Shown here: piece by piece, positions 2,345 to 41,437 of the stretch
Numbering within the stretch: position 1 is the stretch's first letter
Layout: every line of letters begins with the position of its first letter
NCBI GenBank assembly: GCA_044225505.1
Contig: JBGAIN010000009.1
Coordinates: forward strand, 18,592-82,591
Length of the DNA stretch: 64,000 bases
Direction of reading: 5' to 3'
Source: Limisphaerales bacterium
Lineage (GTDB): Bacteria > Verrucomicrobiota > Verrucomicrobiia > Limisphaerales > SIBE01
Made by a program: the position numbers and the translations under genes
Notes under the pieces: model-generated
The model's input: only the letters and a program-made list of their open reading frames with translations
Told to the model about the DNA's origin: nothing
Database searches by the model: none

Positions 2345-5300
2345 TTAGTCGCTGGCCAGGAGCGATGTGTCAAAGCCGCCACCGAGCGCCTTGATCAGTT
2401 GCACGGTGGACGTCATTTGTTGCATCCGCAGATTCAAAGCCGTGCGCTGATTCGTCAAGAGTGTGGTTTGAGCGGTGATGACGTTGAGATAACTGTCGAT
2501 GCCCAGCGTATAGCGGTCGTTGGCCAAGTTTAAATAGCGTTGAGAGGAGGCAACGGCGGCGTCTTGTTGCTCGATTTCAACTGAAAGGAGGCGCAACGTG
2601 GAGAGATTGTCCTCCACCTCTTGAAACGCGGTGAGCACTGTCTGCCGATACTGTGCGATCACTCCCTGATAGCTGGCCCACGCTTGCTCCGTGACAGCCT
2701 TCCGCCGGCCCGCATCGAAAACCGTTTGAGCGAAGCTGGCTCCTATTGCCCAGAATAGACTCGGTCCGCTAATTAGATTGCCCAACGAGGTGCTTTGATA
2801 TCCCGCCGACCCACTCAGCGAGATCGTCGGAAAGTAGGCCGCCCGCGCGACTCCGATCCGCGCATTAGCCTCGGCCGCCCGTCGCTCCGCCGCGGCCACG
2901 TCCGGACGTCGTTCTAACAAGCGCGACGGCATTTCCAACGGGACCGCCATGGGCTGCGCTGTCCAGGGTTCCGGCACGAGCGAGAAGGTCGACGCGGGTA
3001 GGCCCAGGAGCGCAGCGATCGCATGCTCGAGTTGGGCGCGTTGTATCCCAAGGTCCGTTGCTTGCGCGAGGGTGCTGTTGAGTTGCGTCTCAGCCTGCGC
3101 CACGTCCTGGTCAGATCCAATGCCAGTCTGGTGTCGAACACGGTTTAACCGGAGTGATTCCCGATAGGCCACGACGGCGGAATCAAGGAGCTGCTTTTGG
3201 GCATCCAGAGCGCGGATTTGGAAGTAGTCCGCCGCCATTTCGGCCTGAGCGCTCAACCGGACGTTCTCCAGATCGGCGCGAGTTGCTTCTGCTTCCAGTC
3301 GATCCGCGTGCACGGAGTTTCGAATTCGTCCCCAGAGATCCAATTCCCATTGTAAATCTGCCGGGACCGAGTAGTCGGTGAAAGTGATGGCGGAACCGGT
3401 CGATCCTGTGGACGCCCCGGAGGTGTTGCGAAGTGGGCCCTGACGCGATCGAGTGACGGAAGGGCTGGCACGCACAATTGGAATCAGGTCGGCTCGGGCC
3501 TGTTTCACAATCGCCCGGGCTGCCCACAGATTGGCAAACGCAATGGCCAATGACTGATTGGAAGCGCTCACCCGTTCTTCGAGCGCATTAAGATCCGGCC
3601 GGCCAAAGTGCTCCCACCAATTGCCGCGAAGCGCCCCTTCACTCGGCTCGGCGGTTTTCCAGCCGGCGGTTTGGGCTGCCTGTTCGGGGGTGAGTTCTTT
3701 GAAGGCCTTGGGTGTTGGGGACGACGGTCTCGAGTAATTGGGAGCAAAATTACATCCGGAGAGGGTGGCGACAGCCGCGAGCAGCAGGATTCCCCTCGCG
3801 GCGGCTAGAGTTAACCCGGAATGTGAACCGCTGCGAAATTGTTTCCACCACGCGCGCAGGCGGTCCAGGTAAAGATAGACGATGGGAGTCGTGTAGAGGG
3901 TGAGGGCTTGACTCATAATGAGTCCACCAACGATCGCGATGCCGAGCGGTCGTCGGAGTTCCGATCCTGTGCCGTGGCTCCAGACGAGCGGGAGCGCGCC
4001 GAAGAGGGCCGACGTCGTGGTCATGAGAATGGGACGAAACCGCAGAACACAGGCTTTGAAGATCGCGTCGGACGAAGTCAGGCCTTCATCGCGTTCTGCG
4101 GCGAGTGCGAAATCGACCATCATGATGGCGTTCTTCTTTACAATGCCGATGAGCAAGAGCAGGCCAATAATGGCCATGACACTCAAATCAGTGTTGAACA
4201 GGAGCAAGGCCAGGACCGCGCCGACTCCAGCCGAAGGCAACGTGGAAAGAATCGTGATGGGATGGATCAGACTTTCGTAAAGGATTCCCAAAACGATGTA
4301 GACGGCCGCTAACGCTGCCAGGATGAGCAAGGGTTGACTGGAGAGGGACTGTTGAAATGCTTGCAGCGTTCCGGAGAATCGGCCGTGAATTCGACCGGGC
4401 AACCCTATCCTTTGTTCCATTTCCTGAATGATCCGCACGGCGTCGCTCAGAGCGACACCCGGTCCTAAATTGAAGGACAAGGTCAACGCCGGGAACTGGC
4501 CTTGATGATTGACTCCGATCGGGGCGGTGGTCACTTTGGACTGGGCAATCGCGTTTAACGGAATGACGCGGTTGCTGTTGGTTGGGCGCAAATAAACGGT
4601 GTCCAGCCCTGCCGGGCTTCCCCAGAACCTCGGATCGACCTCCATGACAACGTGATATTGGTTGAGTGAGCGATACATCGTTGAAACCTGGCGCTGGCCA
4701 AACGCGTCGTAGAGCGTGTTGTCGATCAGGGCGGGCGAGATTCCAAGCCTGGCCGCAGTCGCGCGGTCGTAAAGCAGCGATGCTTGAAGGCCATTGTTCT
4801 GCTGATCCGAGTTGACGTCGAAAAACCCCGGCAGCTTGCGCATCTCGGCCAACAGAATGGGCCCCCATTGGACGAGATCTTCCAGAGTGTCGCTCTGGAC
4901 CGTGTACTGAAACTGAGCATTGCTTTGGCGGCCGCCGATGCGCAAATCCTGGCCCGCTTGCAGGAACGCGGTTGCGCCCGAGACGCGCGCCAGTTTGGGC
5001 CGGAGACGGGCGATGACCTGATCCGCGCGAACCCTACGTTCCTGGAGCGGTTTTAGCGCCAGGTAAAGGAAACCGCTGTTGGCGGCGCCGAAGCCGCCCG
5101 TAAAGGCCGTGACACTTTCGACCGCTGGATCCGCTTTGATGAGTTCTACAAAACGACGTGCCGCCGTTTGCATCGCGATGAAGGAGGCGTCCTGCGCGCC
5201 CTGCAGACCGCCAAAGATCGTGCCATTATCTTGCTGGGGGAAGAATCCCTTGGGCACCATGGCGAAGAGAAACAAATTCAACCCAATCGTCAGGACGAGG

Positions 5301-6898
5301 ACAGTGAGGGTGATGGCGGGGTGTCGCAGGACGACGCGCAGACTCCGCTCATAAGCTTCGAGCACGCGATTGAAGAGCTGTTCGCTCCATCGATGAATCG
5401 TTCCATTCCTGTTGCGGGGTTCTGCGCGCAGCAGCCGAGAACACATCATCGGTGTCGTGGTCAGGGAAACGACGAGAGAAACCAAAATAGCTGTGGAAAG
5501 GACCACGGCAAACTCGCGGAACAACCGTCCCACGATGCCTCCCATAAGCAGCAGAGGCAGGAAGACAGCCACCAGGGAGATGCTGATGGAAATCACGGTG
5601 AAACCGACTTCGCGCGCACCCCGGAGTGCTGCGGCTCTTGGCGACAGGCCTGCCTCGAGATGACGGGAGACATTCTCCATCACAACAATGGCATCATCCA
5701 CAACGAAGCCGGTGGAGATGGTCAAGGCCATGAGGGACAGATTGTCCAGACTGTAATGGCAAAGATACATCACTCCAAAGGTGGCGATCAAAGAAACGGG
5801 AACCACCACCGCCGGAATCAGTGTCGCCCTGGCGTTGCCCAGAAAGATGAAGACGACCAGAATCACAAGCATCACGGCGATCATCAAGGTCCGTTCGATC
5901 TCTACCACCGAGGCGCGCACGGTCGTGGACCTGTCCAAGACGATTTGCAGGCGGATGGCCGCGGGCAGTGAAGCTTTCAGCGAGGGGACCGCCGCCTTGA
6001 TCCGATCCACGGTCTCAATGATATTTGCGCCCGGTTGGCGGAAGACGATCATCGGAATGCTGGGCTTTCCATCTAAAAAGCCGGCGACTCGGATGTTTTC
6101 CACTCCATCCGTGAGGGTGGCGACGTCTTCCAATCGCACCGCCGCGCCCTGGCGAAAAGCCACGATCAACGGCCGATAATCGCTTGCTTTCAGCAGTTGA
6201 TCATTAGCGGCAATGTCTGCGGTGGTTTCACCGTCGCTCAATTGGCCCTTGGGCAGATTCGCATTTTGCCGGCTTAGCATGAGGCGGACGTCCTCCAAGC
6301 CGAGCCCAAAACTATTCAAGCGGGCCGGATCCACGTCGACGCGCACCGCGGGCAACGCGCCGCCCCCCACGTTCACTTGCCCGACGCCTTGGATTTGCAG
6401 GAGCCGTTGTTGCACAATGGTCGATGCCGCGTCGTAGACCTGGCCGCGATCGTAAACATCCGACGTCAGGGCCAGGATCATGATCGGTGCGTCGGCCGGG
6501 TTGACCTTGCGGTAAGTGGGATTGTTCGGCAGGGAGGCCGGGAGATTCGCCCGCGCGGCGTTGATGGCGGCCTGAACATCGCGCGCTGCCCCGTCGATAT
6601 TACGACTCAAATCAAACTGGAGAGTAACCGCAGTCGATCCGAGAAAGCTGGCGGAGGTCATTTCGTTGACTCCAGCAATGTGGCCGAGTTCTCGCTCCAG
6701 CGGAGCGGCCACGGACGATGCCATAATTTCCGGGCTGGCTCCGGGCAGCGCGGCACCAACGGTGATGGTGGGAAAGTCGACTTGTGGCAACGGAGCGACA
6801 GGCAATTGCAGATAGGCTACCGCTCCGGCCAGGGCAATCGCGGCTGTGAGCAAGGAGGTAGCAACCGGCCGCCGAATGAATGGAGCGGAAATGTTCAT
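2345..6898 (-). CDS. mdtC: MdtC-type RND permease fused in frame to a NodT/OprM-type outer-membrane factor lipoprotein
   Basis: The ATG at 6898-6896 overlaps the mdtB stop (ATGA). The N-terminal ~1,025 aa match MdtC blocks ([11 protein letters not shown]...[14 protein letters not shown]...[17 protein letters not shown]...). The same frame continues through [21 protein letters not shown] (lipobox) into ~469 aa of an outer-membrane efflux protein. The ORF-track start at 7153 is probably too far upstream. Confidence 0.8.
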
Positions 6899-9800
6899 TC
6901 GGTGACCGGCTCCGGTTCGTCCGGTTGCTCGATCGGTTGGCGAGCGAACCGTTGACTCAAACGTTCGAACCAAAGATAGATGACCGGTGTTGTATAAAGG
7001 GTTAACACCTGGCTGACGAGCAGCCCTCCCACAATCGCGATGCCGAGTGGTTTTCGAAGTTCCGAGCCGACACCATTGCCAAGAGCCAGAGGCAAACCAC
7101 CGAGCAGGGCGGCGAATGTGGTCATCATGATCGGACGAAAGCGCAACAGGCACGCTTGATAGATGGCTTGCTCAGGGCTCTTACGTTCCTCGCGCTCCGC
7201 TTCCAAGGCAAAGTCGATCATCATGATGGCGTTCTTTTTCACGATCCCTATAAGCAAAATGATGCCGATCAAGGCCACCACTCCGAGTTCGGTTCCGCAC
7301 AGCCATAAGGCGAGAATGGCGCCAACACCTGCGGAAGGGAGAGTGGATAAGATCGTGATGGGATGGATGTAGCTCTCGTAGAGCACGCCTAAAACGATGT
7401 AAACCGCCACGATGGCCGCAAGGATCAGCCACGGTTCATTCGCCAGGGAAGCCTGAAACGCCTCGGCTGACCCTTCGAATGAAGCTTGAACACTTAAGGG
7501 CATTCCAATCTCTTTCTGCGCGCGTTCGATGGCAGCCGTGGCCTGGCCCAAAGCGGTGTCCGGAGCGAGGTTGAACGAGATCGTGACACACGGAAATTGG
7601 CCCTGATGATTAATGGCCAGCGGCGCCGTTCCCATTTCAAAGTGTGTCAACTCGCTTAAAGGCACAGCTCCGCCGCTGACGGAACGCACGTAGATATCAT
7701 TCAGTTTGGAGGGATTTCTTTGAAAGGCAGGGAGCGCTTCCAAGACAACGTGATACTGATTGAGTTGAGTAAAAAGTGTCGAAATCTGACGCTGGCCAAA
7801 CGCATCGTAAAGCGCATCGTCGATGGCTTGCGGAGTAATCCCCAAACGTGAAGCGGTCACTCGATCAATCACAAGCATCGCCTGTCCGCCACTCAATTGT
7901 TGGTCCGTCGCCACGTCCTGCAATTCGGGTAGAGTCCGGAACTTGGCTACGAGCCGCTGGGTCCATACGTCGAGTTCCTCAGGATTGGCGTCCTGGAGGG
8001 TGAATTGATACTGCGTCCGGCTAATGCGATCCTCCACGGTCAAATCCTGGACCGGCTGCATATGTAGGGTAATGCCTTCGACCTTGGCGAGTTCCGGTTG
8101 CAAGCGCCGCATGATTTCGGTCGCTCGAACCTTCCGCACGGCGAGCGGCTTAAGATTGATCAGAATGCGACCACTGTTCAGGGTGGTGTTGATCCCATCC
8201 GCTCCGATGAACGATGATAAACTTTCAACGGCAGGGTCCTGTAAAACCACCCGCGCCAGGGCTTGCTGGCGCTCCGCCATCGCGGCGAATGAAATGTTCT
8301 GCGCCGCCTCGGAGATCCCCTGGATGACACCTGTATCCTGGACGGGGAAGAAGCCTTTCGGCACCATGGCAAAGAGCAGGAACGTTAAAACCAGCATGGA
8401 AGCCGCGACCATCAGCGTGGCGACTTGCCGCTGCAAAACCCACTGCAGAGTGCGTCCGTAGTAACGGATGACGTTTTCAAACGCGCGCTCCGATGCTTGA
8501 TAGAGCCGCCCGGGTTTCTTGTTCGATTTCGGTTTGAGCAAGCGCGAGCACATCATCGGAGTGAGCGTCAACGAAACGATGGCCGACACAAGGATCGTGA
8601 CGCTCAACGTGACGGCGAACTCGCGGAATAGCCGTCCGACGATGTCGCCCATAAAGAGCAGGGGAATCAGGACGGCAATGAGCGAAACGGTCAGGGAGAT
8701 GATCGTGAACCCAATTTGCGCAGCCCCTTTCAAGGCGGCTTGCATGGGAGTTTCGCCGGCTTCTAGATATCGGAAAATGTTCTCAATCATCACGATCGCG
8801 TCATCGACGACGAACCCGGTCGAGATCGTCAATGCCATCAAAGTGAGATTGTTCAGACTGTAGCCCAAGAGGTACATCACCCCTAGAGTCCCGACGAGCG
8901 AAAGGGGAACCGCGACGCTTGGGATGATGGTTGCGGCAATATTGCGCAGAAACAAAAACATCGCCATCACTACGAGCGCAATCGTCAACAGGAGCGAGAA
9001 TTGCACGTCTTCTACCGAGGCGCGAATCGTCGTGGTCCGGTCCGTCAGGATGACCACGTCGATGGCGGCGGGCAGGCTCGCTTTCAGCTTCGGCAACAGT
9101 TGTTTGACCCGATCCACGACCTGAATAATGTTGGCGCCCGGTTGGCGTTGAACACTGAGAATGACCGCGGGAACCTCATTCATCCACGCCGCTAATTTCG
9201 TGTTCTCAACTCCGTCGATCACTTGCGCAACGTCAGAAAGGACCACGGGCGCTCCTTGTCGATAGGCCACTACCAGGGATTGGTAATCTTTGCTGCTGAG
9301 CATTTGGTCGTTCGCATTGATCTGGGAGGCTTGATACGCGCCATCCAAGTTCCCCTTGGCTTGATTCACACTCGCTTGCTGCAAGGTCGTGCGAAGATCC
9401 GCCAAGTTAAGTCCGTACGACGAAAGCAAAGCAGGATTCGCCTGAATCCGGACCGCCGGCTTTTGCCCCCCGCTCAGCGTGACCAGACCGACCCCGGGCA
9501 CTTGGGAGAGACGTTGAGCGAGGCGCGTTTCGGTAAAATCCTCGACTTGGGATAAAGGAAAGCCCTTCGACGAGATGGCCAAGGTTAAGATGGGAGCGTC
9601 GGCTGGGTTGGATTTGCTGTAAATGGGAGGCGCTGGAAGGCCGGCTGGCAGGTAGGTCTGCGCGGCATTGATGGCGGCCTGCACCTCCTGCTCCGCGACC
9701 TCTATATCGAGGTTTAGGGCGAATTGTAGAACGATGATTGAGCTCCCGCCTGAGCTGGTCGATGTCATCTGATTCAGACCGGGCAACTGTCCAAACTGCC

Positions 9801-10005
9801 GTTCCAAGGGTGCGGTAATGGCCGAGGCCGTGACCTCCGGGCTGGCACCAGGATAAAAGGTGACGATCTGGATGGTCGGATAGTCCACCTGCGGCAATGC
9901 CGACACGGGCAGTTGTTTGTAAGCGACGATCCCCGTGAGCACCAGTGCCAGCATGAGCAAGGAGGTGGCGACCGGCCGCAGAATGAATGGACGGGACGGA
10001 TTCAC
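6895..10005 (-). CDS. mdtB: RND multidrug efflux permease, MdtB type
   Basis: 1,036 aa with near-colinear similarity to E. coli MdtB ([12 protein letters not shown]...[15 protein letters not shown]...GASPEV...APLERQFGQ...). The GTG start overlaps the mdtA stop (GTGA). Confidence 0.9.
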
Positions 10006-11264
10006 AGCCCTTCACTGGCCTTGGCACTGGCAGCCTTCGGATCCAGAGTTTCGGAGCGCACGTTGACCTTTGCGCCCTCGGCCAAGCGGTTAAAATTGTC
10101 CGCTACAAGCTGACTTCCAGGAGGGATCCCATCGACCGCGGTGACTTTGCCGTCCGTGCTCTTGGTTTCGATCGGACGCATCGTGACCGCTTGATTCGTG
10201 TTGACGAGGTAAACAAACGCGCCTTGCGCATTGTGCTGGATGACCGGGTTCGGAACTAGAGTCACCCCGCGCAGCGTATCGACGAGCAAGCGGACGTTGA
10301 CGAACTGGTTTGGAAACAAGGACTCGTCGTCATTCGTATAAACGGCTTTCAGTTTCACCGTGCCGGTCGATGTATCAATCTGATTGTCGACGGTGGCGAG
10401 CGTCCCAGAGGCAATGACCTTTTGCTGTGTGCGATCCAACGCATCCGCGATCAGAGTTTTGCCAGCACGCAGCTGCGCTTGAACTTGTGGCAGAAAGTCT
10501 TGAGCGATGTTGAATACGACCGTGATTGGGTGGAGCTCTGTGATGACAACGAGCGGATTCGCGTCGCTCGCCCGAACAATGTTTCCCGCATCGACCAACC
10601 GCAATCCCACGCGACCGGAGATGGGCGCAACGATGTGGCAGTAGGCCAGTTGGACCTTGGCATTGGCAACGGAGCCCTGGTCCAGTTTCACGGTGCCTTC
10701 GTACTGATGGACCGTGGCGAGTTGGGTGTCGAGTTGCTGTTTGGGAATAGCGTTCTTCGCAAAAGCTTCCTGGTAGCGGCTCAGGTCCACGCGAGCGTTT
10801 TCCAGGAGTGCAGTATCGCGGGCTAACTGGCCTTCGGCTTGCGCCAGGCTCGCTTCGTAGGAAGAGGGATCAATTTCAACCAGGGGCTCGCCGGCGCGCA
10901 CCGTTTGCCCTTCCTGGTAGTGGACTTTGGTCAACTGTCCATCGACCCGGCTCTTGATGGCGACCGTATTCAGCGGCGTGACTGTTCCCAAGGCGTTCAC
11001 ATAGACTCCGAGATCCCCCTGGCGGCTCAAGACGGTGCGGATCGATACAGGCGGCGGACTGGAATTGGCCTTGGCTTTTGCCGAAGCGGCTCGGGCACGT
11101 TGTCGGAAGAGCAGGGTTCCACCCACAATGACCACCAAAATCAGGATCATCCAAGGCCAGATGTGCCAGTGCCTCGAGAACTTGGGAGGATTGGCCGATG
11201 ATTCTGCAGTCTCCCGGGTGCGTGGCCGCGACGCCGTAAGTTCAGACATGTTCAGATTCCCCAC
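10002..11264 (-). CDS. mdtA: RND efflux membrane-fusion (periplasmic adaptor) protein, MdtA type
   Basis: 420 aa with an N-terminal TM anchor and MdtA-like blocks (SRVDGQL...[21 protein letters not shown]...[16 protein letters not shown]...[15 protein letters not shown]). Confidence 0.9.
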
Positions 11265-11515: not shown

Positions 11516-11956
11516 TCATGATTGGCCTTGGGCGCTTCCGTGGGCGTAATAGAAGTCCGTGGAACGGCCCGCCAGGCGGGCCAAGCGCACTTCCGCCGGT
11601 TCCTCGAGCAGTCTAGCAATCGTTTGCAGTAACTTCGGAAAGTCGAGCGGCTTTTCGAGCAAGGCTCCGACACCCGAGCCCAACGCCGTGAACAGTTGAT
11701 TGGAGCGGGCCGTGACAATGATCACGCTCAGAAACGGATCGCGCGACGTCAGCCTCTCGAACGTATCCCACCCGCTTTTGTCAGGCAGGTTGAGGTCCAG
11801 CAATACCAGCTCAATCTTTGATGCCTCGGCAATTTCAATGGCAGCTGTCCCTGTCGCCGCTGCCCAAACGTTATACCCTTCACCCACGAGGACGCGCGTG
11901 AGCATCTCGCGAACGGAAGAGTCATCATCAACGACTAAGATTCGGTGTTTTGCCAT
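11516..11956 (-). CDS. Single-domain CheY-like response regulator receiver
   Basis: MAKHRILVVDDDSSVREML...LVLLDLNLPDKSGWD is a REC domain with no output domain. The ATG at 11956 is preferred over the ORF-track start at 11998. Confidence 0.8.
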   Translation of the reverse strand: MAKHRILVVDDDSSVREMLTRVLVGEGYNVWAAATGTAAIEIAEASKIELVLLDLNLPDKSGWDTFERLTSRDPFLSVIIVTARSNQLFTALGSGVGALLEKPLDFPKLLQTIARLLEEPAEVRLARLAGRSTDFYYAHGSAQGQS

Positions 11957-11986
11957 ACGGGGTGTTAATGTCCGAAGAACTGGGGA

Positions 11987-12002
11987 AGCGGCTAACATGC
12001 CA
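11987..12002 (-). promoter_or_regulatory. Candidate sigma-54 promoter (weak -12 element)
   Basis: The minus strand reads TGGCAT-GTTAG-CCGCT. GG and GC have the canonical spacing, and the motif lies ~30 nt upstream of the CheY-like ATG. Confidence 0.3.
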
Positions 12003-12219: not shown

Positions 12220-13614
12220 ATGCAGTGGGCAGACGGAAAACTGGAATTTAGCCTTATGACGTTCGGGATTCAGTGGAGATTAGTTGTGCTAGGAACCGTC
12301 GTGACATTGATGGGTTTACTCATCCTGCTCGCGACGTTAAACTCGCAAAAGCAAGCCGCCGAACTTGGAGCCCGCCTGAGCCAGGTTGACCTGGAAAGTT
12401 TCCGAATCGCTGACCGGTTTCGGGATTCTCTTCGGGAATTGAACAATACCATGCAGCGCTACGGTATTGAACGTGAGCCTGCCGTTTGGGAAGAGTTTCT
12501 GAAAGCCAGCCGCAAACTCGACGATTGGATCGATCAGCAAAAGCCGAAACTGACCACACGCGAAGAGCAGGAAGCCCTGGCCGAGATCGATGCTGCTTAC
12601 GATCGTTACCAGCGCGTTGCCCAGGAGTTGCAGGCCAAGGTGCTGTTTCTCGAAGGCAAGAGTCCTTCGCTCGCCGATTACGACACGTTCCGCAAGGCTT
12701 CCCAGCGTCTTTTTGACTTGGGCCAGAACCTGGGAAAGGCTCACTATGAATCGCGCAAGATCCTGCTCGCGCACGCGGGACAAACCCTGAAACACCTGCG
12801 CTGGTCAGTTCTCGCTTCCCTCGCCTTGCTCTTTGCCTTCGGCGTCGCGCTCGCGGGCGTGGTTTACCGGGATATGATCGCACCGCTGCGCGTGAAGCTC
12901 GTGCAAAGCGAAAGCTTCATCGAGCGTCACGAGAAATTGGCGTCGCTTGGCATGCTCGCGGCAGGCGTTGCCCACGAGATTCGCAACCCACTCACGGCGA
13001 TCAAAGCGGCGCTCTTTATCCAGCAAAAAAAGTTCCGGCCAGGATCTCCTGAATACGGAGACATGAAGTTGGTGGAGCGCGAGATCCTTCGTTTAGAGAG
13101 GATCGTAAATGACTTTTTGCATTTTGCCCGCCCGACCGATCCTGACTTTGTGACACTTCCCGCCGCGGCTGTGCTAGTGGAAACCCAGCGACTGATGGCC
13201 GCGCCTCTCGCCGCTTCTAACATCGAACTGAAGATTGCGTCAGCGGTGGAGACTCCCATCCGCCTTGACCCCGAGCAAATCAAACAGGTCTTGATTAACA
13301 TTGTGCAAAACGCCTCGGATAGCATTGGCCGCGATGGAACTGTGATCCTTCGCGCTCGGCCCGATCGGATGCTGCTTTCGGGCAAGGAAACGCCCGTGGT
13401 GATCCTGGAAGTTTCTGATTCGGGCAAAGGAATACCTCCGGAAGTGGAAAAGCGCTTGTTCGACCCGTTTTTCACCACTAAGCAGAATGGGACGGGCCTG
13501 GGTTTGTCCATCGCGGCGCGTATCGTGCAGAAGCACGGTGGAGTCTTGCAGTATCAAACGCGCGTGAACCATGGGACAACCTTTGGTATTGTATTGCCGG
13601 GAGCTGATGCATGA
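12220..13614 (+). CDS. Sensor histidine kinase (two TM segments, helical periplasmic domain, HisKA + HATPase_c)
   Basis: H-box LGMLAAGVAHEIRNPLTAI, N-box IVQNASDS, G-boxes DSGKGIP and GTGLGLSIA. Confidence 0.85.
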   Translation: MQWADGKLEFSLMTFGIQWRLVVLGTVVTLMGLLILLATLNSQKQAAELGARLSQVDLESFRIADRFRDSLRELNNTMQRYGIEREPAVWEEFLKASRKLDDWIDQQKPKLTTREEQEALAEIDAAYDRYQRVAQELQAKVLFLEGKSPSLADYDTFRKASQRLFDLGQNLGKAHYESRKILLAHAGQTLKHLRWSVLASLALLFAFGVALAGVVYRDMIAPLRVKLVQSESFIERHEKLASLGMLAAGVAHEIRNPLTAIKAALFIQQKKFRPGSPEYGDMKLVEREILRLERIVNDFLHFARPTDPDFVTLPAAAVLVETQRLMAAPLAASNIELKIASAVETPIRLDPEQIKQVLINIVQNASDSIGRDGTVILRARPDRMLLSGKETPVVILEVSDSGKGIPPEVEKRLFDPFFTTKQNGTGLGLSIAARIVQKHGGVLQYQTRVNHGTTFGIVLPGADA

Positions 13615-15049
13615 CATGACGAACGCGGCCAGAATTCTGTTGATTGAAGACGATATTGGTATTGCCGATACCTTGCGGCGAGTTTTTGCGGAGGAAGGCG
13701 ACGAGGTGATTGTGCACCAGCGGGGCGACAATGGTTTGGCTTGCGCTGTCCAAGAATCGTTCAATGTGGTGATTACCGATTTGCGCCTGCCCGGGCTCGA
13801 TGGCCTCGAGTTGGTTAGGCAATTGCACGCTGCGCAGCCGCGGTTGCCAATCATCCTTGTGACGGCGTTTGGGACGACCGAGACCGCCATTCAAGCGATG
13901 AAACTGGGCGCCTACGATTACCTGATCAAACCCTTTGATATGCCCGAGTTGATCGATCTCGTGCGGAGGGCGGCAAACAGCAATCGGCTCATGTCGGAGC
14001 CTGTGGTTTTGGGCGAGCCGGGAGCAGCGCGCAGTGCGCTCGTGGGGCGAAGCCCGGCGATGCAAGCGATCTACAAAGCCGTCGGGCGCGTTGCGTCGAA
14101 ACCGGTCAGCGTTCTGATCCTGGGCGAGACTGGGACGGGCAAGGAACTGATTGCCCGCGCCCTTTATCAGCATAGCGACCGGGCCAACGCGCCGTTCATC
14201 GCGATCCACTGCGCGGCGATTCCGGAAACGTTGTTGGAAAGCGAGCTCTTCGGACACGAACGCGGCGCCTTTACGGGCGCGGAGGCGCGGCGGATCGGGC
14301 GCTTTGAACAAGCGGACCGAGGGACTCTTTTTCTCGATGAAATCGGAGACATGACTCCGGGCACTCAAGTAAAACTCCTTCGCGTTCTGCAGGAACGCTG
14401 TCTGCAACGGCTTGGGGGTAAGGAAACCATTCCCGTGGATGTGCGTGTCGTCGCGGCGACGCATCGCGATTTGGAGGAGGCCATCCGCACGAAGCAATTC
14501 CGGGAAGATCTCTATTACCGACTCAGTGTCGTCGTCATTAACCTACCCTCACTGCGCGAACGCCGCCAGGATATCCCAGATCTGGTCCATTATTTCCTGG
14601 AGAAACACGGCCCGGAACTCGGGAGCAGCAATCCGTCGATTCACCCTGAGGCGCTGGAATTCCTTCGATCCCAGGCGTGGCCTGGCAACGTTCGTGAATT
14701 GGAGAATGCCATTCGCAAAGCGTTGCTTCTGGCACAGAACTACACGATCACAGTGGACCACCTTCGCACCGTGCTCAGCAAAGGCCACGCATTTCACTCC
14801 GGCGCGGCTTTCTCTTTTGGAACCTATATCGATGACTTGTTGGCGGCAGCGCAACGTGGGGAGGTGGCCGATGTCCACGATCGGGTGGTGGCAACGGCGG
14901 AGCGTGAACTGATCGGGCGTGCGATCGCTCTGGCGCAAGGGAACCAGGCCAAAGCCGCGCGATGGCTGGGGATTTCGCGCATTACCATGAAGGCGAAGCT
15001 TGTTCAGTTTGGCCTGCACCCAGGGACAGAGGAAGGAGGAGCAGGGTAG
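13607..15049 (+). CDS. Sigma-54-dependent response regulator (NtrC family: REC + AAA+ + Fis-type HTH)
   Basis: REC ([14 protein letters not shown]...[12 protein letters not shown]), Walker [15 protein letters not shown] motif ([15 protein letters not shown]) and a C-terminal HTH ([15 protein letters not shown]). The ATG at 13607 overlaps the kinase stop; 13616 is an alternative start. Confidence 0.9.
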
Positions 15050-21729: not shown

Positions 21730-23778
21730 CTATTCCCTTGCGGTTTCGGTGATCGCCGATGTTCGCACTCGAAAGAAACGATTCGGACCGGTCAGGGGCG
21801 TCGACCAGGGGCTAGTGGCATTGGCCACTGCCGACCATGGTCCCAGGCTCGAAGCGGCCCCTTCGAGCACGCCCTCCTTCCAGCTCAGCTCCAAACCGGA
21901 CGGTTTGCGTTCGGCTCGCAACACCACGCCGATGTCCGCGATGTTCCAGAGCCTGACAATGTCCGCACCGGTCAGCACTTGCGTGCCAGAGGCGTTGAAA
22001 TTCACAGATTCGACCGGGGCAGTGTGGCCCGCAAACACTCGGAGCTCTCTGCCCGAACGCCACTCCAGCAAGCGCGCGGTGAAGGAAGGCCAGCCTTCAC
22101 CCACGAGCAGACGCTCGCCGTCCGGAGAGAGGGCAATGTCGTTAATAAATCCGCTGGCTGCCCATTCCGCTCTGACTTGTCCAGTTGCCAGGTTGAACGC
22201 ACGGATTAAACCTTCCTCCCACGCGACCACCAGCTCCGTGCCTGAGGGCGAAAACGCCAACCCCTTCACCGTTCCGGCCTCGGCTATGTGAATGGCATGA
22301 GGTTGGCCCGTCTCGACATTCCAAATGCGCACCGCCGGATCAGTGCTGGAGCCTCCTCCAGCGACCAGCTTTCCATCCGGTGAGAACGCCACGCTGTGGA
22401 CATACCCAGCGCCATGGCCCAGCGTGTGGATGAGGTCGCCCGTCGCGGTGTTCCAGATCCGGAGGGTACGGTCCTGAGCGCCGGTCGCAATCCGGCTTCC
22501 ATCCGGGGAGAACGCGGCCGCCAGGAGCCAGTCGGTATGCCCCCGGAACTCTCGTTCGAGCACACCGGTCTCTGTCCTCCACAGTTGCGTGGGCCACTTG
22601 GGAGATCCGGATGTGGTGAGAACGTGCTGGCCATCCGGCGAAAACGCCGCGACATGGGTGCCAGCCGGGTGCCCCGCAAACGCGCGCACTTGGCTCCCGT
22701 CCGCCCGCCTCCACAACCGGGTCGACTTTTCCACGCCCCCCGAGAGGACGTACTGTCCGTCGGGCGAAAACGCCACCGCGAGAGTCACGCTGGTGGTATG
22801 TCCTTCGATGGCCCGCTGCGTCAGACCGCTGCGGAAATCGACCGTGCGGATCAATAGATCGGTGGTTGAGGTCAAAATCGTGTCCGAGCCGGGAATCCAG
22901 CTCATGCTGTTGAGCGGTTCCGTCATCCAGGTATGCAGCCCGTTGCCGGTGTTCGTGTCCCAAACGATCACACGTTGATCTTCAGAGCCGGCAATGAGCA
23001 ACGGCGAACCGGGCACCGCCACAAGATGGCGCACCCCGCCCTGTGCGCCCGTGAACGTGGCGAGCCGCTCGCCCGTTGCGAGGTTCCAAACGCACACTTG
23101 GCGATCTTCCCCTCCAGTCGCGAGCTTCCCATCGGGCAGGAGTGCAAGCGACAGCACAGAACCGGTGTGATGCCCAAACACACGCCGGGTTTCTCCGGAT
23201 TGAAAGTCCCACAAGCGGACGGTGTTGGTGCGAGACGTATCCGCCGTGATCAGCCCTGTCCCGTCCGGCGTGAATAGGGCCGTGTTGATGAAGCTTCCCT
23301 GCACGGTCATGTGCTGAATTGGGGCTCCCGATTCTGTGGACCAAATTGCCGCAACGTTATCGCTGCTAGCCGAAACGAACCGACCGCCATCCGCGGAGAA
23401 ATTTAAGGCGTTAATCTCACCGTGATGCCCCGTAAGCATGCGAAGGAGTGTGCCTGTTTCCGCAGACCATATTCCGATGGCGCCATACCTCGTCCCTGTC
23501 ACTAGCCGAGACCCGTCCGGCGAGAACGCCAGAGCTGTAATGCGCATCCCGTGCGTTTCTAACCGATGGCGCACGACGCCAGATGGAAAGTCCCACAGAT
23601 AGGCCGCACTCTCTCCGCCGGTTGCCAGGGTCCTTTGGTCTGGAGAAAGCGCTGCCGGACCCAAATCGCCCAGTCCGTAGCGCTGCGTCGGCTGGGTGAC
23701 AACATCCCCTCTAGCCACCCAAGCCACCGCCAGCAAAACTCCCAGCCCCAACGCCCGGCACGGTAAATGTCGTCTCAT
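21730..23778 (-). CDS. Secreted WD40-repeat protein (two propellers' worth of repeats) with a C-terminal ...FFR module
   Basis: More than 12 repeats of GHxxxVxxxAFSPDGxxLxxGxxDxTxRxW. The likely start is MRRHLPCRALGLGVLLAVAWV (ATG 23778). The C-terminus reads ...GPWSAV...PNRFFRVRT. Confidence 0.85.
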   Translation of the reverse strand: MRRHLPCRALGLGVLLAVAWVARGDVVTQPTQRYGLGDLGPAALSPDQRTLATGGESAAYLWDFPSGVVRHRLETHGMRITALAFSPDGSRLVTGTRYGAIGIWSAETGTLLRMLTGHHGEINALNFSADGGRFVSASSDNVAAIWSTESGAPIQHMTVQGSFINTALFTPDGTGLITADTSRTNTVRLWDFQSGETRRVFGHHTGSVLSLALLPDGKLATGGEDRQVCVWNLATGERLATFTGAQGGVRHLVAVPGSPLLIAGSEDQRVIVWDTNTGNGLHTWMTEPLNSMSWIPGSDTILTSTTDLLIRTVDFRSGLTQRAIEGHTTSVTLAVAFSPDGQYVLSGGVEKSTRLWRRADGSQVRAFAGHPAGTHVAAFSPDGQHVLTTSGSPKWPTQLWRTETGVLEREFRGHTDWLLAAAFSPDGSRIATGAQDRTLRIWNTATGDLIHTLGHGAGYVHSVAFSPDGKLVAGGGSSTDPAVRIWNVETGQPHAIHIAEAGTVKGLAFSPSGTELVVAWEEGLIRAFNLATGQVRAEWAASGFINDIALSPDGERLLVGEGWPSFTARLLEWRSGRELRVFAGHTAPVESVNFNASGTQVLTGADIVRLWNIADIGVVLRAERKPSGLELSWKEGVLEGAASSLGPWSAVANATSPWSTPLTGPNRFFRVRTSAITETARE

Positions 23779-24068
23779 CGCCCGACAGCGTACCCGATGC
23801 GCGTCCACCGGCAATGGAACGAAAGTGGCATCGGGTTGACAGCTTGCACGGGCGATCGGGGTTTTTTCGGCTTCCGGGGAGAACACCCTCTTTAGAATAC
23901 CCGGGCTGCTTCTAAACCGTAGTATTGGCCACGGTGGAGTCTGACGATCGACGGCCTCAGCGCTGGGGGAGAGTAAAACCACAAACCTCCCTTGCACAGT
24001 CGAACAACCGGATTACCGTGCCCAACATTCGAGGAGAGTCAGCAGGCGTTTTTGTCCTACAAAGGGGG

Positions 24069-27107: not shown

Positions 27108-30100
27108 ATGCCTCCCATTAAATCCTGCCTCACTTGTGGTGCGGTAATCTCACCGGCTACGCCGGCGGGAGTTTGCGCCTCGTGCCTGCTCGCTCCGGGA
27201 TTGGAACCGCTGACACATGCGGAGGTTCCCCAACCGACAGACCTGACGCCGATCCTGGTTAAGCCAGCCCCGCCCCTGGTCGTTAAGTTCCATTCCTTCG
27301 GCGACTACGAATTGATCGAGGAGATTGCGCGCGGTGGGATGGGGGTGGTGTTTCGGGCCCGGCAGCTCAGCCTCAACCGAATCGTGGCCTTGAAGTTCAT
27401 TCATCCCGTCAGGCTCAACTCGCCCGAGGCCGTGCGCCGATTTCGCATGGAGGCCGAAGCCGCCGCGAGTTTGAACCATCCCAACATCGTCACCATCTAC
27501 TCAGTCGAACAGTCTGATCGGACACATTTCCTCTCCATGGAACTGGTGGAAGGACGCCCCCTGAGCGACCTGATTCCTCCAGGAGGCTTCGATTTGGAAA
27601 AGTTGTTCGCACTTGGGATTCCGCTGTCTGACGCCTTGGTGGCGGCACACGCGCGCGGCATCGGTCATCGCGATCTCAAAGCCTCCAACGTCATGGTCAA
27701 CAACCAGGGTCGCTTGAAAGTGATCGACTTTGGCCTGGCCAAACTGTTCCAGCGGGACTCCGATGCCATCCATCCCGAGACGCCTGCTTTGTCCCAGACC
27801 GCGGCAGGTCAAATTCTGGGGACGCCCGCTTACATGTCGCCCGAGCAGATCGAAGGACGCCGAGGCGATCATCGCACCGACATTTTTTCCCTGGGCATTC
27901 TCCTATACGAGATGGCGACGGCTCAGCTTCCTTTCCAGGGAGACAGCTCCGTTGCCGTCATGTCTGCCATCCTTCGGGATTCGCCCAAGCCACTGACCGA
28001 TCTCAAGCCAGACTGGCCCGAACATTTGGGCCGGATCATTGGGCGTTGTCTGCAAAAAGATCCGGACGATCGTTACCAGAGCGCCGTCGAGGTAAGGGAT
28101 GCACTGCAAGCGCTGGAGGGAGAAGCCACGATGGCTCGCAACAACCGATCCCACAATCTGCCAGTGCAACTGACCAGCTTCATCGGCCGCGAGCGCGAGA
28201 TGGCCGAGGTCACCGGCCTGATCGTCGGAGATGCTGTTCACGAGGCATCTGGAACCCGGCTGTTGACGCTGACGGGGCCGGGCGGCACCGGAAAGACGCG
28301 GCTCGCCTTGCAGGTCGCCGCCGGCTTGGTCGAGCGCTTCCCGGACGGTGTCTGGCTGGTTGAGCTGGCCGCACTGGCCGATCCCTCGCTAGTGTCCCAA
28401 ACCGTGGCCTCCGCAATGGGCTTGCTCAACACGGCCGGACGGCCGCCGCTGGAACTACTGACGCGATACCTCAAGCCGAAACTGGGGCTGCTGCTGCTCG
28501 ATAACTGCGAGCACCTCGTTGCGGCTTGCGCCGACCTCGTGGATGCGCTGCTGCGGGTTTGCCCACGGTTGAAGGTCCTGACCACCAGCCGGGAAGGCCT
28601 CAGGCTCGCTGGCGAGACCACGTGGCTGGTACCCTCACTCTCGGTGCCGAGCTTGGCCGGTGGGGAGTTGGAAAGCGGCACCCTGGGCGCGCTCGGGCAG
28701 TTCGAATCGATCAAACTCTTCGTCGAGCGGGCCAAGGCGGTCACGCCGACGTTTGAGCTAAATGAACACAACGCGGCGGCCCTGGCTCAGCTCTGCTATC
28801 GACTGGACGGCATCCCCTTGGCCATCGAATTGGCTGCCGCTCGCACCAGGCTGTTGTCGGTCGAGCACTTGGCCGATCGTGTGCACGACCGCTTCCGGCT
28901 GCTGACAGGTGGCAGCCGGACAGCTCTGGCGAGGCACCAGACGCTGCGCGCGCTGGTGGACTGGAGCTATGACCTCCTTTCCGACGAGGAACGGTTGCTC
29001 TTCGACCGCCTGTCGGTCTTCGCGGGTGGGTGGACGCTCGAGGCGGCTGAGGCCGTGTGCGTCGACGACCCGGGACCAGGCACGATTGGCGAACAAGGGC
29101 CGAAGGAATTTCTCCGTTCCAAGGATATCCTCGAGCTACTCGGTCATCTGTTGGAGAAGTCGATGGTTGTGCGGGAGCGGTCCGTCGGCGGCATGGCGCG
29201 CTACCGCCTCTTGGAGACGTTGCGACAGTACGCCCAGGAGCGGCTGGCCATACGCGGCGCGGCGGCAAACGATGCTCTGCGCGCACGGCACGTTAAATAC
29301 TTCGTCACCCTGGGGGAACAGGTGGCTTTGGCCATGCACGGCCCCGACCAGCCCAAATGGTCCGACCGTCTCGAAGTCGAGCACGATAACATCCGGGCGG
29401 GGCTCGAGTGGGGCAAGGCGGCGGACGCCCCGCCGGACCGAGTGGAGTTGGTGCTCCGCCTCGCCGCGCCACTCTACCTTCCGTGGCTGCGGCAGGGACA
29501 TGGCCGGGAAGGACGCCAACATTTCGATACCCTGCTCTCCCATCCCAATGCCCAGCGTCCGACACGAGCGCGAGCGCAGGTGCTCTTCGCCCTTGGGTCG
29601 TTGGCCTTGTGGCAGCATGGCGACGAGGCCACCGCTTGGGCGCTCCTGAACGAATGCTTGACGCTGGCAACACGCTTAGGGGACACACACGTCATGGCTG
29701 ACGCGCACCACAACCTCGGAGTGGTGCTGTCCAACCGTGGTGACAACGTCGGCGCCCGACAGCATCACGAGGAGGCGTTGCGATTGACGCGGGCCGACGG
29801 CGATCTGTCCGGTATCCGCTGGTCGCTGGAGGATCTGGCTGACGTGGCGGCTGAGGACGGAAAAGCGGATCAGGCGTTGGCGCTCTATGTGGAAGCGCTC
29901 TCCCTGGCGCGTCAGACTGGCGACCAGCACGGCATCGCCTCCATCTTGCAGAGTATGGGCATCTTGGCGAAAGCTGTCGGGAAAGCTGAACGTGCCGCGG
30001 AGCTGATTGGCGAAGGGCTGAGCATCATGCGGCGGATTGGATGCCAGCATTGCTGCGCGCGAATGCTCGCCCAGTTGGCGTTCATTGCTAGTGCGTCCGC

Positions 30101-30335
30101 GACGCCAGAGCGGGCGGTGCGGCTCCTCGGGGCTGCGGACGCGCTGCGGGAACGGACCGGCATTGTGATCCCAACAAATTCCGTGGCGACCTTTGAGCAA
30201 ACCATGGAAGATGCGCGGCGGCGGCTGGGTGAGGCCGCTTATGCCGCTGCGTGGGGCGAGGGCCGGCTGATGGCTTTGTCCCAGGCTGTGGCCTACGCCC
30301 TGCCTCCTTCCGCACCATCCCTCTCCGGCCAGTAG
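27108..30335 (+). CDS. Ser/Thr protein kinase fused to a STAND/NB-ARC-like ATPase and TPR repeats (PknK-like architecture)
   Basis: N-terminal Cys pairs (CLTCG...CASC). Kinase motifs are GGMGVVFRA, HRDLKASN, DFGLAK and GTPAYMSPE. The P-loop is LTGPGGTGKTRLA with Walker B LLLLDNCEH. The C-terminal ~350 aa are TPR-like. Confidence 0.9.
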   Translation: MPPIKSCLTCGAVISPATPAGVCASCLLAPGLEPLTHAEVPQPTDLTPILVKPAPPLVVKFHSFGDYELIEEIARGGMGVVFRARQLSLNRIVALKFIHPVRLNSPEAVRRFRMEAEAAASLNHPNIVTIYSVEQSDRTHFLSMELVEGRPLSDLIPPGGFDLEKLFALGIPLSDALVAAHARGIGHRDLKASNVMVNNQGRLKVIDFGLAKLFQRDSDAIHPETPALSQTAAGQILGTPAYMSPEQIEGRRGDHRTDIFSLGILLYEMATAQLPFQGDSSVAVMSAILRDSPKPLTDLKPDWPEHLGRIIGRCLQKDPDDRYQSAVEVRDALQALEGEATMARNNRSHNLPVQLTSFIGREREMAEVTGLIVGDAVHEASGTRLLTLTGPGGTGKTRLALQVAAGLVERFPDGVWLVELAALADPSLVSQTVASAMGLLNTAGRPPLELLTRYLKPKLGLLLLDNCEHLVAACADLVDALLRVCPRLKVLTTSREGLRLAGETTWLVPSLSVPSLAGGELESGTLGALGQFESIKLFVERAKAVTPTFELNEHNAAALAQLCYRLDGIPLAIELAAARTRLLSVEHLADRVHDRFRLLTGGSRTALARHQTLRALVDWSYDLLSDEERLLFDRLSVFAGGWTLEAAEAVCVDDPGPGTIGEQGPKEFLRSKDILELLGHLLEKSMVVRERSVGGMARYRLLETLRQYAQERLAIRGAAANDALRARHVKYFVTLGEQVALAMHGPDQPKWSDRLEVEHDNIRAGLEWGKAADAPPDRVELVLRLAAPLYLPWLRQGHGREGRQHFDTLLSHPNAQRPTRARAQVLFALGSLALWQHGDEATAWALLNECLTLATRLGDTHVMADAHHNLGVVLSNRGDNVGARQHHEEALRLTRADGDLSGIRWSLEDLADVAAEDGKADQALALYVEALSLARQTGDQHGIASILQSMGILAKAVGKAERAAELIGEGLSIMRRIGCQHCCARMLAQLAFIASASATPERAVRLLGAADALRERTGIVIPTNSVATFEQTMEDARRRLGEAAYAAAWGEGRLMALSQAVAYALPPSAPSLSGQ

Positions 30336-32630: not shown

Positions 32631-33455
32631 TCAAACTGCGACCGTCACACAGAGGAATGTCGCAGGAATGGTCGTGGCATTTTTATCCGAGCTTTTGTTC
32701 TGGCTTTGGAACAAGGCTTCCAATTCGTTCTGCAAATCCTTGGCCCGGCCGGATTTTTCCGCAGCTTCAAAAGCGTTCATCGTCGGTCCGTAGTATTTCC
32801 GGAAATCATCCACGAACGCCGAAGGCGGCTTGGGCGCATGGAAGGTGAACGTCTCTCGGGAGAAGGAGATTCTCTCCTTGGGTATCCCCGCGTGAGCAAA
32901 GCGCTCAATCACGTGATCTTCCAGGCCCCACGTCATGGGGCTGACAAATCCTTTTGGGGGCGGCGGCGTATAGGCCGAACTGACTCGCAAGATCTGCGCG
33001 ACGAGCGTCGGGTCGTTCGGAATCCAGTTGCCCATGACAATCCGGCCGCCAGGTTTGGTCACGCGTACTTTCTCCTTGGCCACTTGGTGTGGGTTAGATG
33101 CAAACATCGCGCCAAAGACGCTCACCACGAGGTCGAATGATTTGTCGTTCAATTCGCGCAAATCGGAGGCGTCCCCTTCCTGGAAGCGACAATTCGCGAG
33201 CCCCAGTTCCTGGGCGCGTCTGTTCCCGGCTTCCACGAGGTTGGAGGCGATGTCCACGCCGGATACCAACGCGCCCAGCTTCGCGGCTGGCACCGCGGTC
33301 GTCCCGTCGCCGCAGCCCAGGTCCAGGACTTTCATTCCTTGTTTAATTCCGAGTTGGCGAACGAGCGCTTCACCGCTTTCGCGCATGGTGGCGGCGATAC
33401 GAGTGAAGTCACCTTTTTCCCAGAGTGCTTTGTTTGGATTCATGGCAGTATTCAT
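32631..33455 (-). CDS. Class I SAM-dependent methyltransferase
   Basis: Motif I VLDLGCGDGT, then post-I/II motifs (GVDIA, FDLVVSVFG, KPGGRIVM). Confidence 0.8.
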   Translation of the reverse strand: MNTAMNPNKALWEKGDFTRIAATMRESGEALVRQLGIKQGMKVLDLGCGDGTTAVPAAKLGALVSGVDIASNLVEAGNRRAQELGLANCRFQEGDASDLRELNDKSFDLVVSVFGAMFASNPHQVAKEKVRVTKPGGRIVMGNWIPNDPTLVAQILRVSSAYTPPPPKGFVSPMTWGLEDHVIERFAHAGIPKERISFSRETFTFHAPKPPSAFVDDFRKYYGPTMNAFEAAEKSGRAKDLQNELEALFQSQNKSSDKNATTIPATFLCVTVAV

Positions 33456-33498
33456 TTTTTGGATGGTTCGTATAGTTCTTGTGCTTGTTTTTGTTGGA

Positions 33499-34185
33499 CT
33501 AATAGGATGTGAAAAGTGTGGAAGTGCCCCGCGATTTTTCGAGTTGCAGTGTCCTCACGTCGGCGAGAATCAAGCGCGGGTCGAGAGTGCCGGAGCTGTA
33601 GATGTTTCGGATCCTGCCAGCCGAATCGATCAGGAACACCCGTAAGGTGTGGTTGAGCGGTCCGGTGGGATCGAAGGCGTTCGCCTTCTTATCGACGGCT
33701 TGGCCGTAGGCGTCCAGGATGGGTTTCAGATCCGCCTCGGATCGTGTGGTGACGAAATGCCACGGGGCCGCGTCCGGACGTCGTGATGCGAGTTGGGCAT
33801 AATCGGCCATTCGCTTGGGCGTGTCGTTCGCCGGATCGAAGCTGAGGCTCACGAGGCGAAGTTGCTTCGAGAGCGAGGCGTCATCGGCGCTTTCGCGATG
33901 AAGCTGCAACAAAACACCAGTGGCGTAGGGACAGGCCTTCGCCGCGGCGCAGCGCGTGTAGATGAAACTCATCACGGTGACGCGGCCGTGGGTGAGATCG
34001 GCCAGGCGAATCGATCGGCCTGTGCAATCCAGTAACGCGCCATCAGCGGCAGATTTGATGACGGGCAGAGTGTAAGACCCCGGCTCGGGCGCTTCGTAAT
34101 CGTATTCGGACGTGTGAGCAGTTTCCGCCTGCAGCCCAATAAGACCGGCGGTGGCGAGCATGATCAGTTGAGTGACGGTGTTCAT
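33499..34185 (-). CDS. SCO1/SenC-family thioredoxin-fold protein (copper chaperone-like)
   Basis: Signal sequence MNTVTQLIMLATAGLIG, a Cys pair in FIYTRCAAAKACPYATG, and a conserved His region HTLRVFLIDSAGRIRNIY. The ATG at 34185 lies 8 nt after the upstream stop. Confidence 0.8.
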   Translation of the reverse strand: MNTVTQLIMLATAGLIGLQAETAHTSEYDYEAPEPGSYTLPVIKSAADGALLDCTGRSIRLADLTHGRVTVMSFIYTRCAAAKACPYATGVLLQLHRESADDASLSKQLRLVSLSFDPANDTPKRMADYAQLASRRPDAAPWHFVTTRSEADLKPILDAYGQAVDKKANAFDPTGPLNHTLRVFLIDSAGRIRNIYSSGTLDPRLILADVRTLQLEKSRGTSTLFTSY

Positions 34186-34193
34186 GGGAGTCT

Positions 34194-41280: not shown

Positions 41281-41374
41281 TAACACGGAATTTACATGGA
41301 TTGGACACGGATTTAAAACGGATAAAACCCGTGTTATGTCCCTGTTATATCCGTGTTATATCCCTGTTATAAAC
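41281..41374 (+). promoter_or_regulatory. Array of short direct/inverted repeats upstream of the CotH/LTD gene
   Basis: Four tandem 11-mers (gtgttatgtcc / ctgttatatcc / gtgttatatcc / ctgttataaac, 41331-41374) are preceded by the inverted half-sites ACACGGA (41284, 41306). Confidence 0.35.
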
Positions 41375-41437
41375 GAATGAAAGGCTTGCGGTCCTTCACG
41401 CTTGCCCCGGAGCCTCAACCTCCGACAGAGTAGCAAC

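Follow-up and report, generated by a model that had tools for sequence, protein, structure and literature searches.

We analysed a 64,000-nucleotide stretch of contig JBGAIN010000009.1 from a Limisphaerales bacterium (hereafter the window), in which the second RND permease of an efflux operon and an outer-membrane factor (OMF) occupy one uninterrupted open reading frame (ORF) of 1,517 codons. That this is a real, functional translational fusion is, in our judgement, close to certain. We further consider it probable, on comparative sequence evidence, that permease and OMF are made together as one polyprotein chain, and that an internal signal peptide carrying a lipobox leads to an Lgt- and LspA-dependent cut which frees a lipidated OMF. 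Well over a hundred lineages of environmental bacteria have kept the fusion. Its parts are ordinary, an HAE-1 RND permease and a NodT/OprM OMF; the unusual features are that the two are joined and that the lipobox lies inside the chain.

A permease and an outer-membrane factor in one frame

A first-pass annotation, made from the DNA letters of the window, had described a continuous 1,517-codon frame at 2345-6898, and the ORF list and its translation bore this out on the minus strand (Table 1). The open frame in the list extends further upstream (2345..7153, minus strand); we took as start the ATG at 6898, which forms an ATGA overlap with the stop of the RND gene upstream (6895..10005). An identical protein of 1,517 amino acids (P0121, 100%) was present in NCBI-derived data. 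Pfam ACR_tran (PF00873) matched residues 5-1011 with 1064.7 bits, and Pfam OEP (PF02321) matched two stretches in the C-terminal third of the fused protein. The permease moiety belongs to HAE-1, scoring 1268.4 bits against a cut-off of 1250 with NF033617 (RND_permease_2, residues 5-1013). The name 'MdtC-type' given to it in the first pass holds as a best match but not as an equivalog: the NCBIfam MdtC model (NF007905, residues 1-1020) scored highest of all models, yet its 1424.8 bits fall short of the equivalog cut-off of 1774, and we therefore call the moiety MdtC/MuxC-like. The solved structure nearest to it is MdtB (9lyq).

The remainder of the chain had been read as about 469 residues of a NodT/OprM-type OMF, an assignment that both profile and structure comparisons support. 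TIGR01845 (NodT) aligned to residues 1041-1508 over profile positions 2-460 of 460 with 418.8 bits (cut-off 210.05). OprM (1wp1) matched with E=1.9e-59, residues 1-463 of the OMF lying on OprM 1-452 when Cys1049 is counted as residue 1. In this alignment Cys1049 pairs with Cys1 of mature OprM, the 1wp1 chain starting at its lipidated Cys.

Searching with the full-length protein returned approximately 52 further full-length RND-OMF fusions of 1,494-1,552 amino acids, 57-75% identical to the window protein at 95-100% coverage. They came from NCBI, JGI, ENA and Logan assemblies, two of them on contigs of 5.9 Mb and 995 kb. The Cys was invariant in 53/53 aligned fused sequences, the Gly before it was nearly so, and the length of the linker differed between homologues in whole codons only. 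Finding the same architecture with a homologous junction in some 52 proteins is far more than chance would give. One fused protein (P0138) occurred with the same sequence on 20 contigs; the places listed for it span six or more metagenome samples, four of them JGI and two ENA, and the JGI peat or soil datasets with P0138 include 3300036717, 3300029922, 3300037083 and 3300037223.

Unfused relatives were examined by scanning GTDB-representative genomes and aligning the junction, which gave at least 80 loci. Among the matches listed, 73 of 80 had a stop codon between RND and OMF or carried the two in differing frames, and seven were without a usable RND-OMF pair. At the unfused loci the RND stop precedes a separate OMF, which starts at a Met and brings along both a basic n-region and a lipobox. 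Fused and unfused forms were interleaved in a neighbour-joining tree of the RND part, which has no bootstrap values and into which unfused sequences were entered only at ≥75% identity. The unfused RND protein nearest to the window in that tree (P0201, locus L091) ends in TAA, and one base later follows the ATG of a separate OMF with ...GGCNFAPKYSRPSV. The tails of unfused RND proteins (...GMAPQAAFG and ...EPQPALG, each followed by the stop) are homologous to the 'G(M)ALQPAA' part of the fused linker. This homology suggests that the fusion probably originated through a deletion in which the stop codon of the RND gene was lost together with the spacer behind it and the n-region that once opened the OMF signal peptide.

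The junction as a candidate internal lipoprotein signal peptide

Among 52 fused homologues the linker carried a net charge of +2 to +7 (median +4) and was followed by an uncharged h-region of 13-31 residues (median 22). The position before the Cys (-1) was Gly in 50 and Ala in two, preceded by [L/A/G/F/V..]-[S/T/G..], and position +2 was Ser in 38, Asn in seven, Ala in three, Thr in two and Val and Asp in one each. A PROSITE-style lipobox pattern of the PS51257 type ({DERK}(6)-[LIVMFWSTAG](2)-[LIVMFYSTAGCQ]-[AGS]-C) fits the window junction and 51/52 of these homologues, the exception being LNGC. A lipoprotein precursor as a rule has its Cys no more than about 35 residues from the N-terminus, behind a basic n-region at that end, unlike the fused protein, in which the Cys is residue 1049. 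The basic segment (net +4) that precedes the h-region of the window is the RND tail. Linker D1012-R1035 would accordingly be cytoplasmic and stand in for the n-region of a signal peptide, and the h-region G1036-G1048 is predicted to insert N-in/C-out; a Kyte-Doolittle peak falls at residues 1028-1046. The L-S-G-C lipobox noticed in the first pass, with its Cys codon at 3752-3754, was recovered as Cys1049, the putative diacylglyceryl acceptor and residue 1 of the mature OMF. After the Cys, a SFAPKYxKP... segment is common to fusions and free lipoprotein OMFs, and the first strongly conserved OMF block, RGNWWE (~residue 1091), lies about 40 residues past Cys1049.

Some descendants of the fusion have decayed. 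In one class (L092 1683-5600; P0179 and six sister clusters; 1,103 amino acids) Ser stands in place of the Cys (AGGSSFAPKY), with a frameshifted OMF that is truncated or deleted. P0233 stops after ...FAGG, precisely at the expected Cys codon, P0174 is a decayed fusion with a deletion inside the OMF, and P0210 is also listed among the decayed descendants. Lineages with a decayed OMF, which have lost the Cys or show deletions and frameshifts, act as a natural negative control, the Cys being retained only while the OMF is attached.

An exhaustive representative search also found fused proteins just 32-38% identical to that of the window. One of these (P0269) led to a second family, with 76 fused homologues in its alignment and most of them from Candidatus Omnitrophota (P0269, P0414-P0485; for example GenBank MCA9394794.1). 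These belong to another RND subfamily, are approximately 35% identical to the window protein and are an independent recurrence of the fused design. A K-rich linker, an h-region and [S/T/A/N]GC were present in 67/76. The nine most divergent members (Table 1) have no Cys at the junction and carry AXA-type signal peptidase I sites at the corresponding spot, such as LSLPVRA/EDPA, TGPAQA/EEAP and AFPALA/QESA (slash, predicted cut). One of the nine, P0522, is encoded in a MarR-adaptor-RND::OMF operon and was present on 12 contigs. The junction motif, lipobox or AXA, thus always matches the type of OMF behind it, which is hard to explain unless the chain is cleaved. A further distant fusion (P0277) has the junction LGAC. 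In the truncated P0276 (789 amino acids) an AcrB-like RND tail is joined to an OMF through a long linker that has neither a Cys nor a clear AXA site (...VLAPGSEAALWKIGPDYQKP), and this may be another junction type.

In the route that we propose, the 12-transmembrane (TM) permease would be inserted co-translationally and its C-terminus left in the cytoplasm, where that of AcrB is established to lie. The positive-inside rule would hold the basic linker inside, and the hydrophobic stretch, acting as an internal signal peptide, would go into the Sec/YidC translocon in N-in/C-out orientation, with export of the OMF moiety. Lgt would place diacylglycerol on Cys1049 and LspA (signal peptidase II) would cleave between Gly1048 and Cys1049. 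Lnt would then N-acylate the freed OMF and Lol would carry it to the outer membrane; the window has Asn, not the Asp retention signal, at +2 of its Cys. The OMF would finally trimerise and serve the pump, and the spent signal peptide would stay on the permease as a short hydrophobic C-terminal tail. The first-pass annotation had put forward the core of this route, a polyprotein with an N-in/C-out helix cut by signal peptidase II. Comparison across the family favours it and makes cleavage a reasoned prediction: the Cys is invariant, -1 is Gly or Ala and the linker is positive, to which are added the alignment with Cys1 of OprM, the loss of the Cys on OMF decay and the AXA sites of the non-lipoprotein fusions.

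Several points weigh against this polyprotein route. We infer every step after translation, cleavage and lipidation included, from sequence comparison. The window junction is itself atypical, with LTLAAARG in its linker where the family consensus is ALQPAA, and with an uncharged h-region that, at 13 residues, is the shortest in the set. The homologues were gathered by a search for fused proteins, which makes their always being in frame partly a selection effect, and fusion was seen in 0/80 loci among the matches listed from the GTDB-representative scan, a count that is uninformative on how frequent fusion is. We know of no documented action of Lgt and LspA on a lipobox that lies ~1,050 residues along a polytopic chain; a literature search for a precedent of an internal lipobox found none. 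Stoichiometry poses a further difficulty. A B2C1 heterotrimer is known only for MdtBC of E. coli, from work cited in PMC7015380; if this is valid here, one OMF protomer per heterotrimer would be a third of what the pump needs.

Alternative accounts of the fused frame

With cleavage a prediction, the hydrophobic stretch might instead be a permanent 13th TM helix that leaves the OMF covalently attached to the permease, an arrangement that we think unlikely. The ~40 residues from Cys1049 to RGNWWE could form a long tether, and the 1:1 ratio in single-RND fusions would suit a 3:3 complex. However, to judge from the dimensions of AcrAB-TolC, a tether of 40 residues would at best just reach from the inner membrane to the equatorial domain of the OMF. 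The invariant Cys and the Gly or Ala at -1 would have no role in a plain membrane anchor, and neither the disappearance of the Cys once the OMF decays nor the use of AXA cleavage motifs in place of the lipobox in non-lipoprotein fusions fits an uncleaved chain. The same holds for the SFAPKYxKP... segment, which is as in free lipoprotein OMFs, and for the OprM alignment, which runs from residue 1. A B2C heterotrimer would also be unable to provide three OMF protomers in cis, to judge from PMC7015380. There is a slim chance that the OMF is tethered to the permease, permanently or for a functionally long time before LspA acts, and that the nascent pump templates its own outer-membrane channel. 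We would give equally little weight to its corollary, one polypeptide touching both membranes with the retained signal helix serving as a functional, AcrZ-like 13th helix of the permease.

A different account has the OMF made apart, from a start codon in the linker or h-region that may be non-canonical, with read-through from the RND part incidental to a lost stop. The junction codons of seven fused genes were read for start codons, off-frame stops and slippery sites, and no conserved internal start codon was found in them. An in-frame ATG is present at the 'MALQPA' position in about nine family members and a TTG or GTG nearby in some others, and the window has a purine run (AGGGGA) ahead of the ATC/CTG codons at 1037-1039. 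Against such initiation, the Met of MALQPA is not conserved (elsewhere in the family it gives way to L, V, A, T, I, S or F), and L090 offers as its sole candidate at the junction a GTG eight residues ahead of the Cys. The window has no in-frame ATG, GTG or TTG from codon 995 (an ATG inside TM12) to codon 1110 (a GTG 61 residues past the Cys), in agreement with the earlier remark that none lies between the RND tail and the hydrophobic core. Initiation at its CTG codons would give a signal peptide of ~10 residues that lacks a basic n-region. Moreover, if the OMF were started internally there would be no selection for a basic linker or an ever-open frame. We therefore regard internal initiation as improbable.

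The first-pass annotation had also cautioned that a single-base indel, real or from assembly, might have joined two normal genes, the RND gene ending at an off-frame stop. Both stops that it named are present in the +1 frame of the window linker, TAA at 3813-3811 and TAG at 3807-3805, close relatives without the fusion exist, and many fragmentary 'both-domain' matches on contigs of long-read metagenome-assembled genomes (MAGs) are frameshift noise (P0006-P0009, P0166/L012). Off-frame stops also occur in the linkers of L081, L082, L087, L088 and L089, but their frame (+1 or +2) and position vary, and the linker of L090 has none. The TTA-ACT from which the window TAA derives stands where 'MALQPA' homologues have ATG-GCG, with the frame unchanged, and the OMF frame would be without a start codon even were the RND frame shifted. 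Because some 52 full-length proteins that have diverged in sequence still share the fusion and its homologous, in-frame junction, because the identical P0138 recurs in independent metagenome assemblies and because the off-frame stops are not conserved, we reject the indel; an artefact or recent accident is very improbable.

Programmed frameshifting in the linker, by which most RND chains would end at an off-frame stop and RND and RND-OMF be made in a fixed ratio, draws on the off-frame stops of these same linkers and can be set aside as scarcely credible: their frame and position vary and L090 has none, reading the junction codons of the seven fused genes disclosed neither a conserved off-frame stop nor a shared slippery sequence (no dedicated motif scan was made), and the OMF would come only from non-shifted ribosomes, leaving the fusion as its route.

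A protein search with the junction alone gave short fused fragments but also many 'both-domain' fragments of the frameshift-noise kind on long-read MAG contigs, and these were set aside as evidence. Proteins across the RND/OMF junction on 'MFD' MAG contigs (P0006-P0009, P0012, P0015, P0018, P0166/L012 and others) end in out-of-frame garbage. Such proteins could mislead a census of domain architectures.

Operon context, precedents and database annotation

The window operon is of the MuxABC-OpmB type, with adaptor, RND1, RND2 and OMF, the last two joined into one translational unit. Its gene order of adaptor, RND-B and RND-C is that of a two-RND operon (MdtABC or MuxABC-OpmB type), although the adaptor and RND1 score slightly under the MdtA/MuxA and MdtB/MuxB equivalog cut-offs (Table 1). 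All family-1 fused loci fetched (L081-L090) have an adaptor, an RND1 of about 1,030 amino acids and RND2::OMF, with varying flanking genes, and no separate OMF gene was found at any of them. Likewise, no further RND or OEP gene was found among the 18 large window ORFs scanned.

Table 1. Positions of the fused gene, its parts and the neighbouring genes in the window, and of the AXA-type fusions
Feature	Position	Strand	Remarks
RND permease::OMF fusion, single ORF	2345..6898	minus	1,517 codons, stop 2345-2347 (ORF list and translation)
RND (HAE-1) permease moiety, MdtC/MuxC-like	3866..6898	minus	Residues 1-1011, up to TM12 (...TTPIVYLYL)
Basic linker D1012-R1035	3794..3865	minus	Net charge +4, no ATG/GTG/TTG
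Hydrophobic h-region G1036-G1048	3755..3793	minus	13 residues, final hydrophobic segment past TM12
Lipobox L-S-G-C	3752..3763	minus	Cys1049 = 3752-3754
Predicted mature NodT/OprM-type OMF, C1049-D1517	2348..3754	minus	469 amino acids; TIGR01845, OprM 1wp1
RND permease 1, MdtB/MuxB-like	6895..10005	minus	1,036 amino acids; NF007798 1550.5 bits, cut-off 1584
Periplasmic adaptor, MdtA/MuxA-like membrane fusion protein	10002..11264	minus	420 amino acids; NF008589 376.9 bits, cut-off 391; TIGR01730 209.5 versus 94.9
Response-regulator receiver protein, operon head	11516..11998	minus	
Histidine kinase and sigma-54 NtrC-type activator	12220..15049	plus	Divergent; kinase 12220-13614, activator 13571-15049
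AXA-type fusions P0507, P0515, P0516, P0522, P0525, P0528-P0530, P0532	loci L093/L094 5001-9581		

Known tripartite pumps with two RND subunits include MuxABC-OpmB, from Pseudomonas aeruginosa, and the MdtABC system of E. coli (Mima 2009 and Kim 2010, both cited by PMC7015380). The window operon resembles MuxABC-OpmB in its order of adaptor, RND-B, RND-C and OMF, in its best NCBIfam matches (MdtA/MuxA, MdtB/MuxB and MdtC) and in the NodT/OprM type of its OMF. It differs in that RND-C and OMF form one frame, the OMF having neither a start codon nor an N-terminal signal peptide of its own, and in scores that lie under the curated equivalog cut-offs. A similar comparison can be made with the biogenesis of OprM-type lipoproteins through Lgt, LspA, Lnt and Lol. 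The fusions share with it a lipobox with an invariant Cys, and their h-region and basic segment are like those of unfused relatives. In contrast, the fused signal peptide is internal, ~1,030 residues from the N-terminus and straight after a 12-TM protein; its n-region is the C-terminal tail of the permease, and it would remain on the permease after cleavage.

The nearest conceptual precedent known to us, by analogy, is FbcH of Bradyrhizobium japonicum, a cytochrome b-c1 polyprotein that Thony-Meyer et al. (1989/1991) reportedly found to be cut at an internal signal peptide by signal peptidase I. That system likewise has one ORF in which a polytopic inner-membrane protein runs on through an internal signal peptide into a periplasm-facing partner from its own complex. 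It differs in using signal peptidase I and in placing both products in the inner membrane, whereas the fusions described here have a lipobox and a product bound for the outer membrane; the nine AXA-type fusions are the closer FbcH analogue. PMC10924465 describes engineered constructs, among them linked AcrB trimers, in which efflux components are covalently fused. They too place components of one pump in one polypeptide, but are, as presented there, laboratory-made, of like subunits and within one membrane, unlike the natural fusion of an inner- and an outer-membrane component.

Tripartite efflux pumps are textbook three-gene machines. To our knowledge the OMF has always been described as a separate protein with an N-terminal signal peptide. 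The fusions are a natural and long-kept alternative, in which the OMF is translated as the C-terminal part of the permease and would be freed at an internal lipobox or, in the sister group, at an AXA site. Neither natural RND-OMF fusions nor internal lipoboxes turned out to be described in the full-text literature searched, which was mostly without subscription journals, so that an earlier mention is possible. If the proposed route is correct, the fused protein would be, as far as we could find, the first known Lgt/LspA/Lol substrate inside a polytopic membrane protein and the first known case of an outer-membrane protein delivered by way of a polyprotein. The fusions would also offer a natural system in which to study how strict the requirement of Lgt and LspA for a free N-terminus is, and in what way the expression of pump components is coupled.

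In databases the fusions are labelled 'multidrug efflux pump', 'efflux transporter outer membrane subunit' or 'RND permease', and at JGI 'HAE1 family protein/NodT family ... lipoprotein'. Single-name labels on fusions of 1,500 amino acids cause the OMF or the permease to be missed in pump counts for Verrucomicrobiota, Acidobacteriota and Omnitrophota.

Stop and start codons overlap by four bases both at 6895-6898 (ATGA) and at 10002-10005, where the adaptor and RND1 genes share GTGA. From these overlaps the operon looks translationally coupled throughout, with the fusion as the far end of that trend. The histidine kinase and NtrC-type activator encoded divergently from the operon head are likely regulators of the pump. 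The receiver gene and the divergent kinase and activator pair are syntenic between the window and the fused loci L081-L086 (1-3400), and the synteny of kinase and activator with the fused operon suggests sigma-54-dependent control of the pump.

Covalent joining was also observed between permeases. P0139 (2,131 amino acids) has two C-terminal TTPVIYLY motifs, at 1006 and 2099, and apparently holds two RND units in one ORF. P0148 (2,095 amino acids, on a 6.87-Mb contig) is likewise an apparent two-RND ORF, in which a strict motif search gave one TTPVIYLY, at 2057. These two proteins would be natural covalent RND-RND fusions of the two-RND pump type.

Elsewhere in the window, genes typical of the Planctomycetes-Verrucomicrobia-Chlamydiae group encode RCC1-repeat, WD40, Kelch/Ig-repeat and 1,542-amino-acid CotH/LTD proteins and a Ser/Thr kinase with TPR; genes of this group lie at 348-2294, 21730-23997, 27108-30335, 41402-46030 and 56849-59923. 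A coarse ORF map gave 85% coding for the window, with a few gaps of 600-870 bp (for example 33455-34194, 40675-41402, 48384-49088 and 56023-56849).

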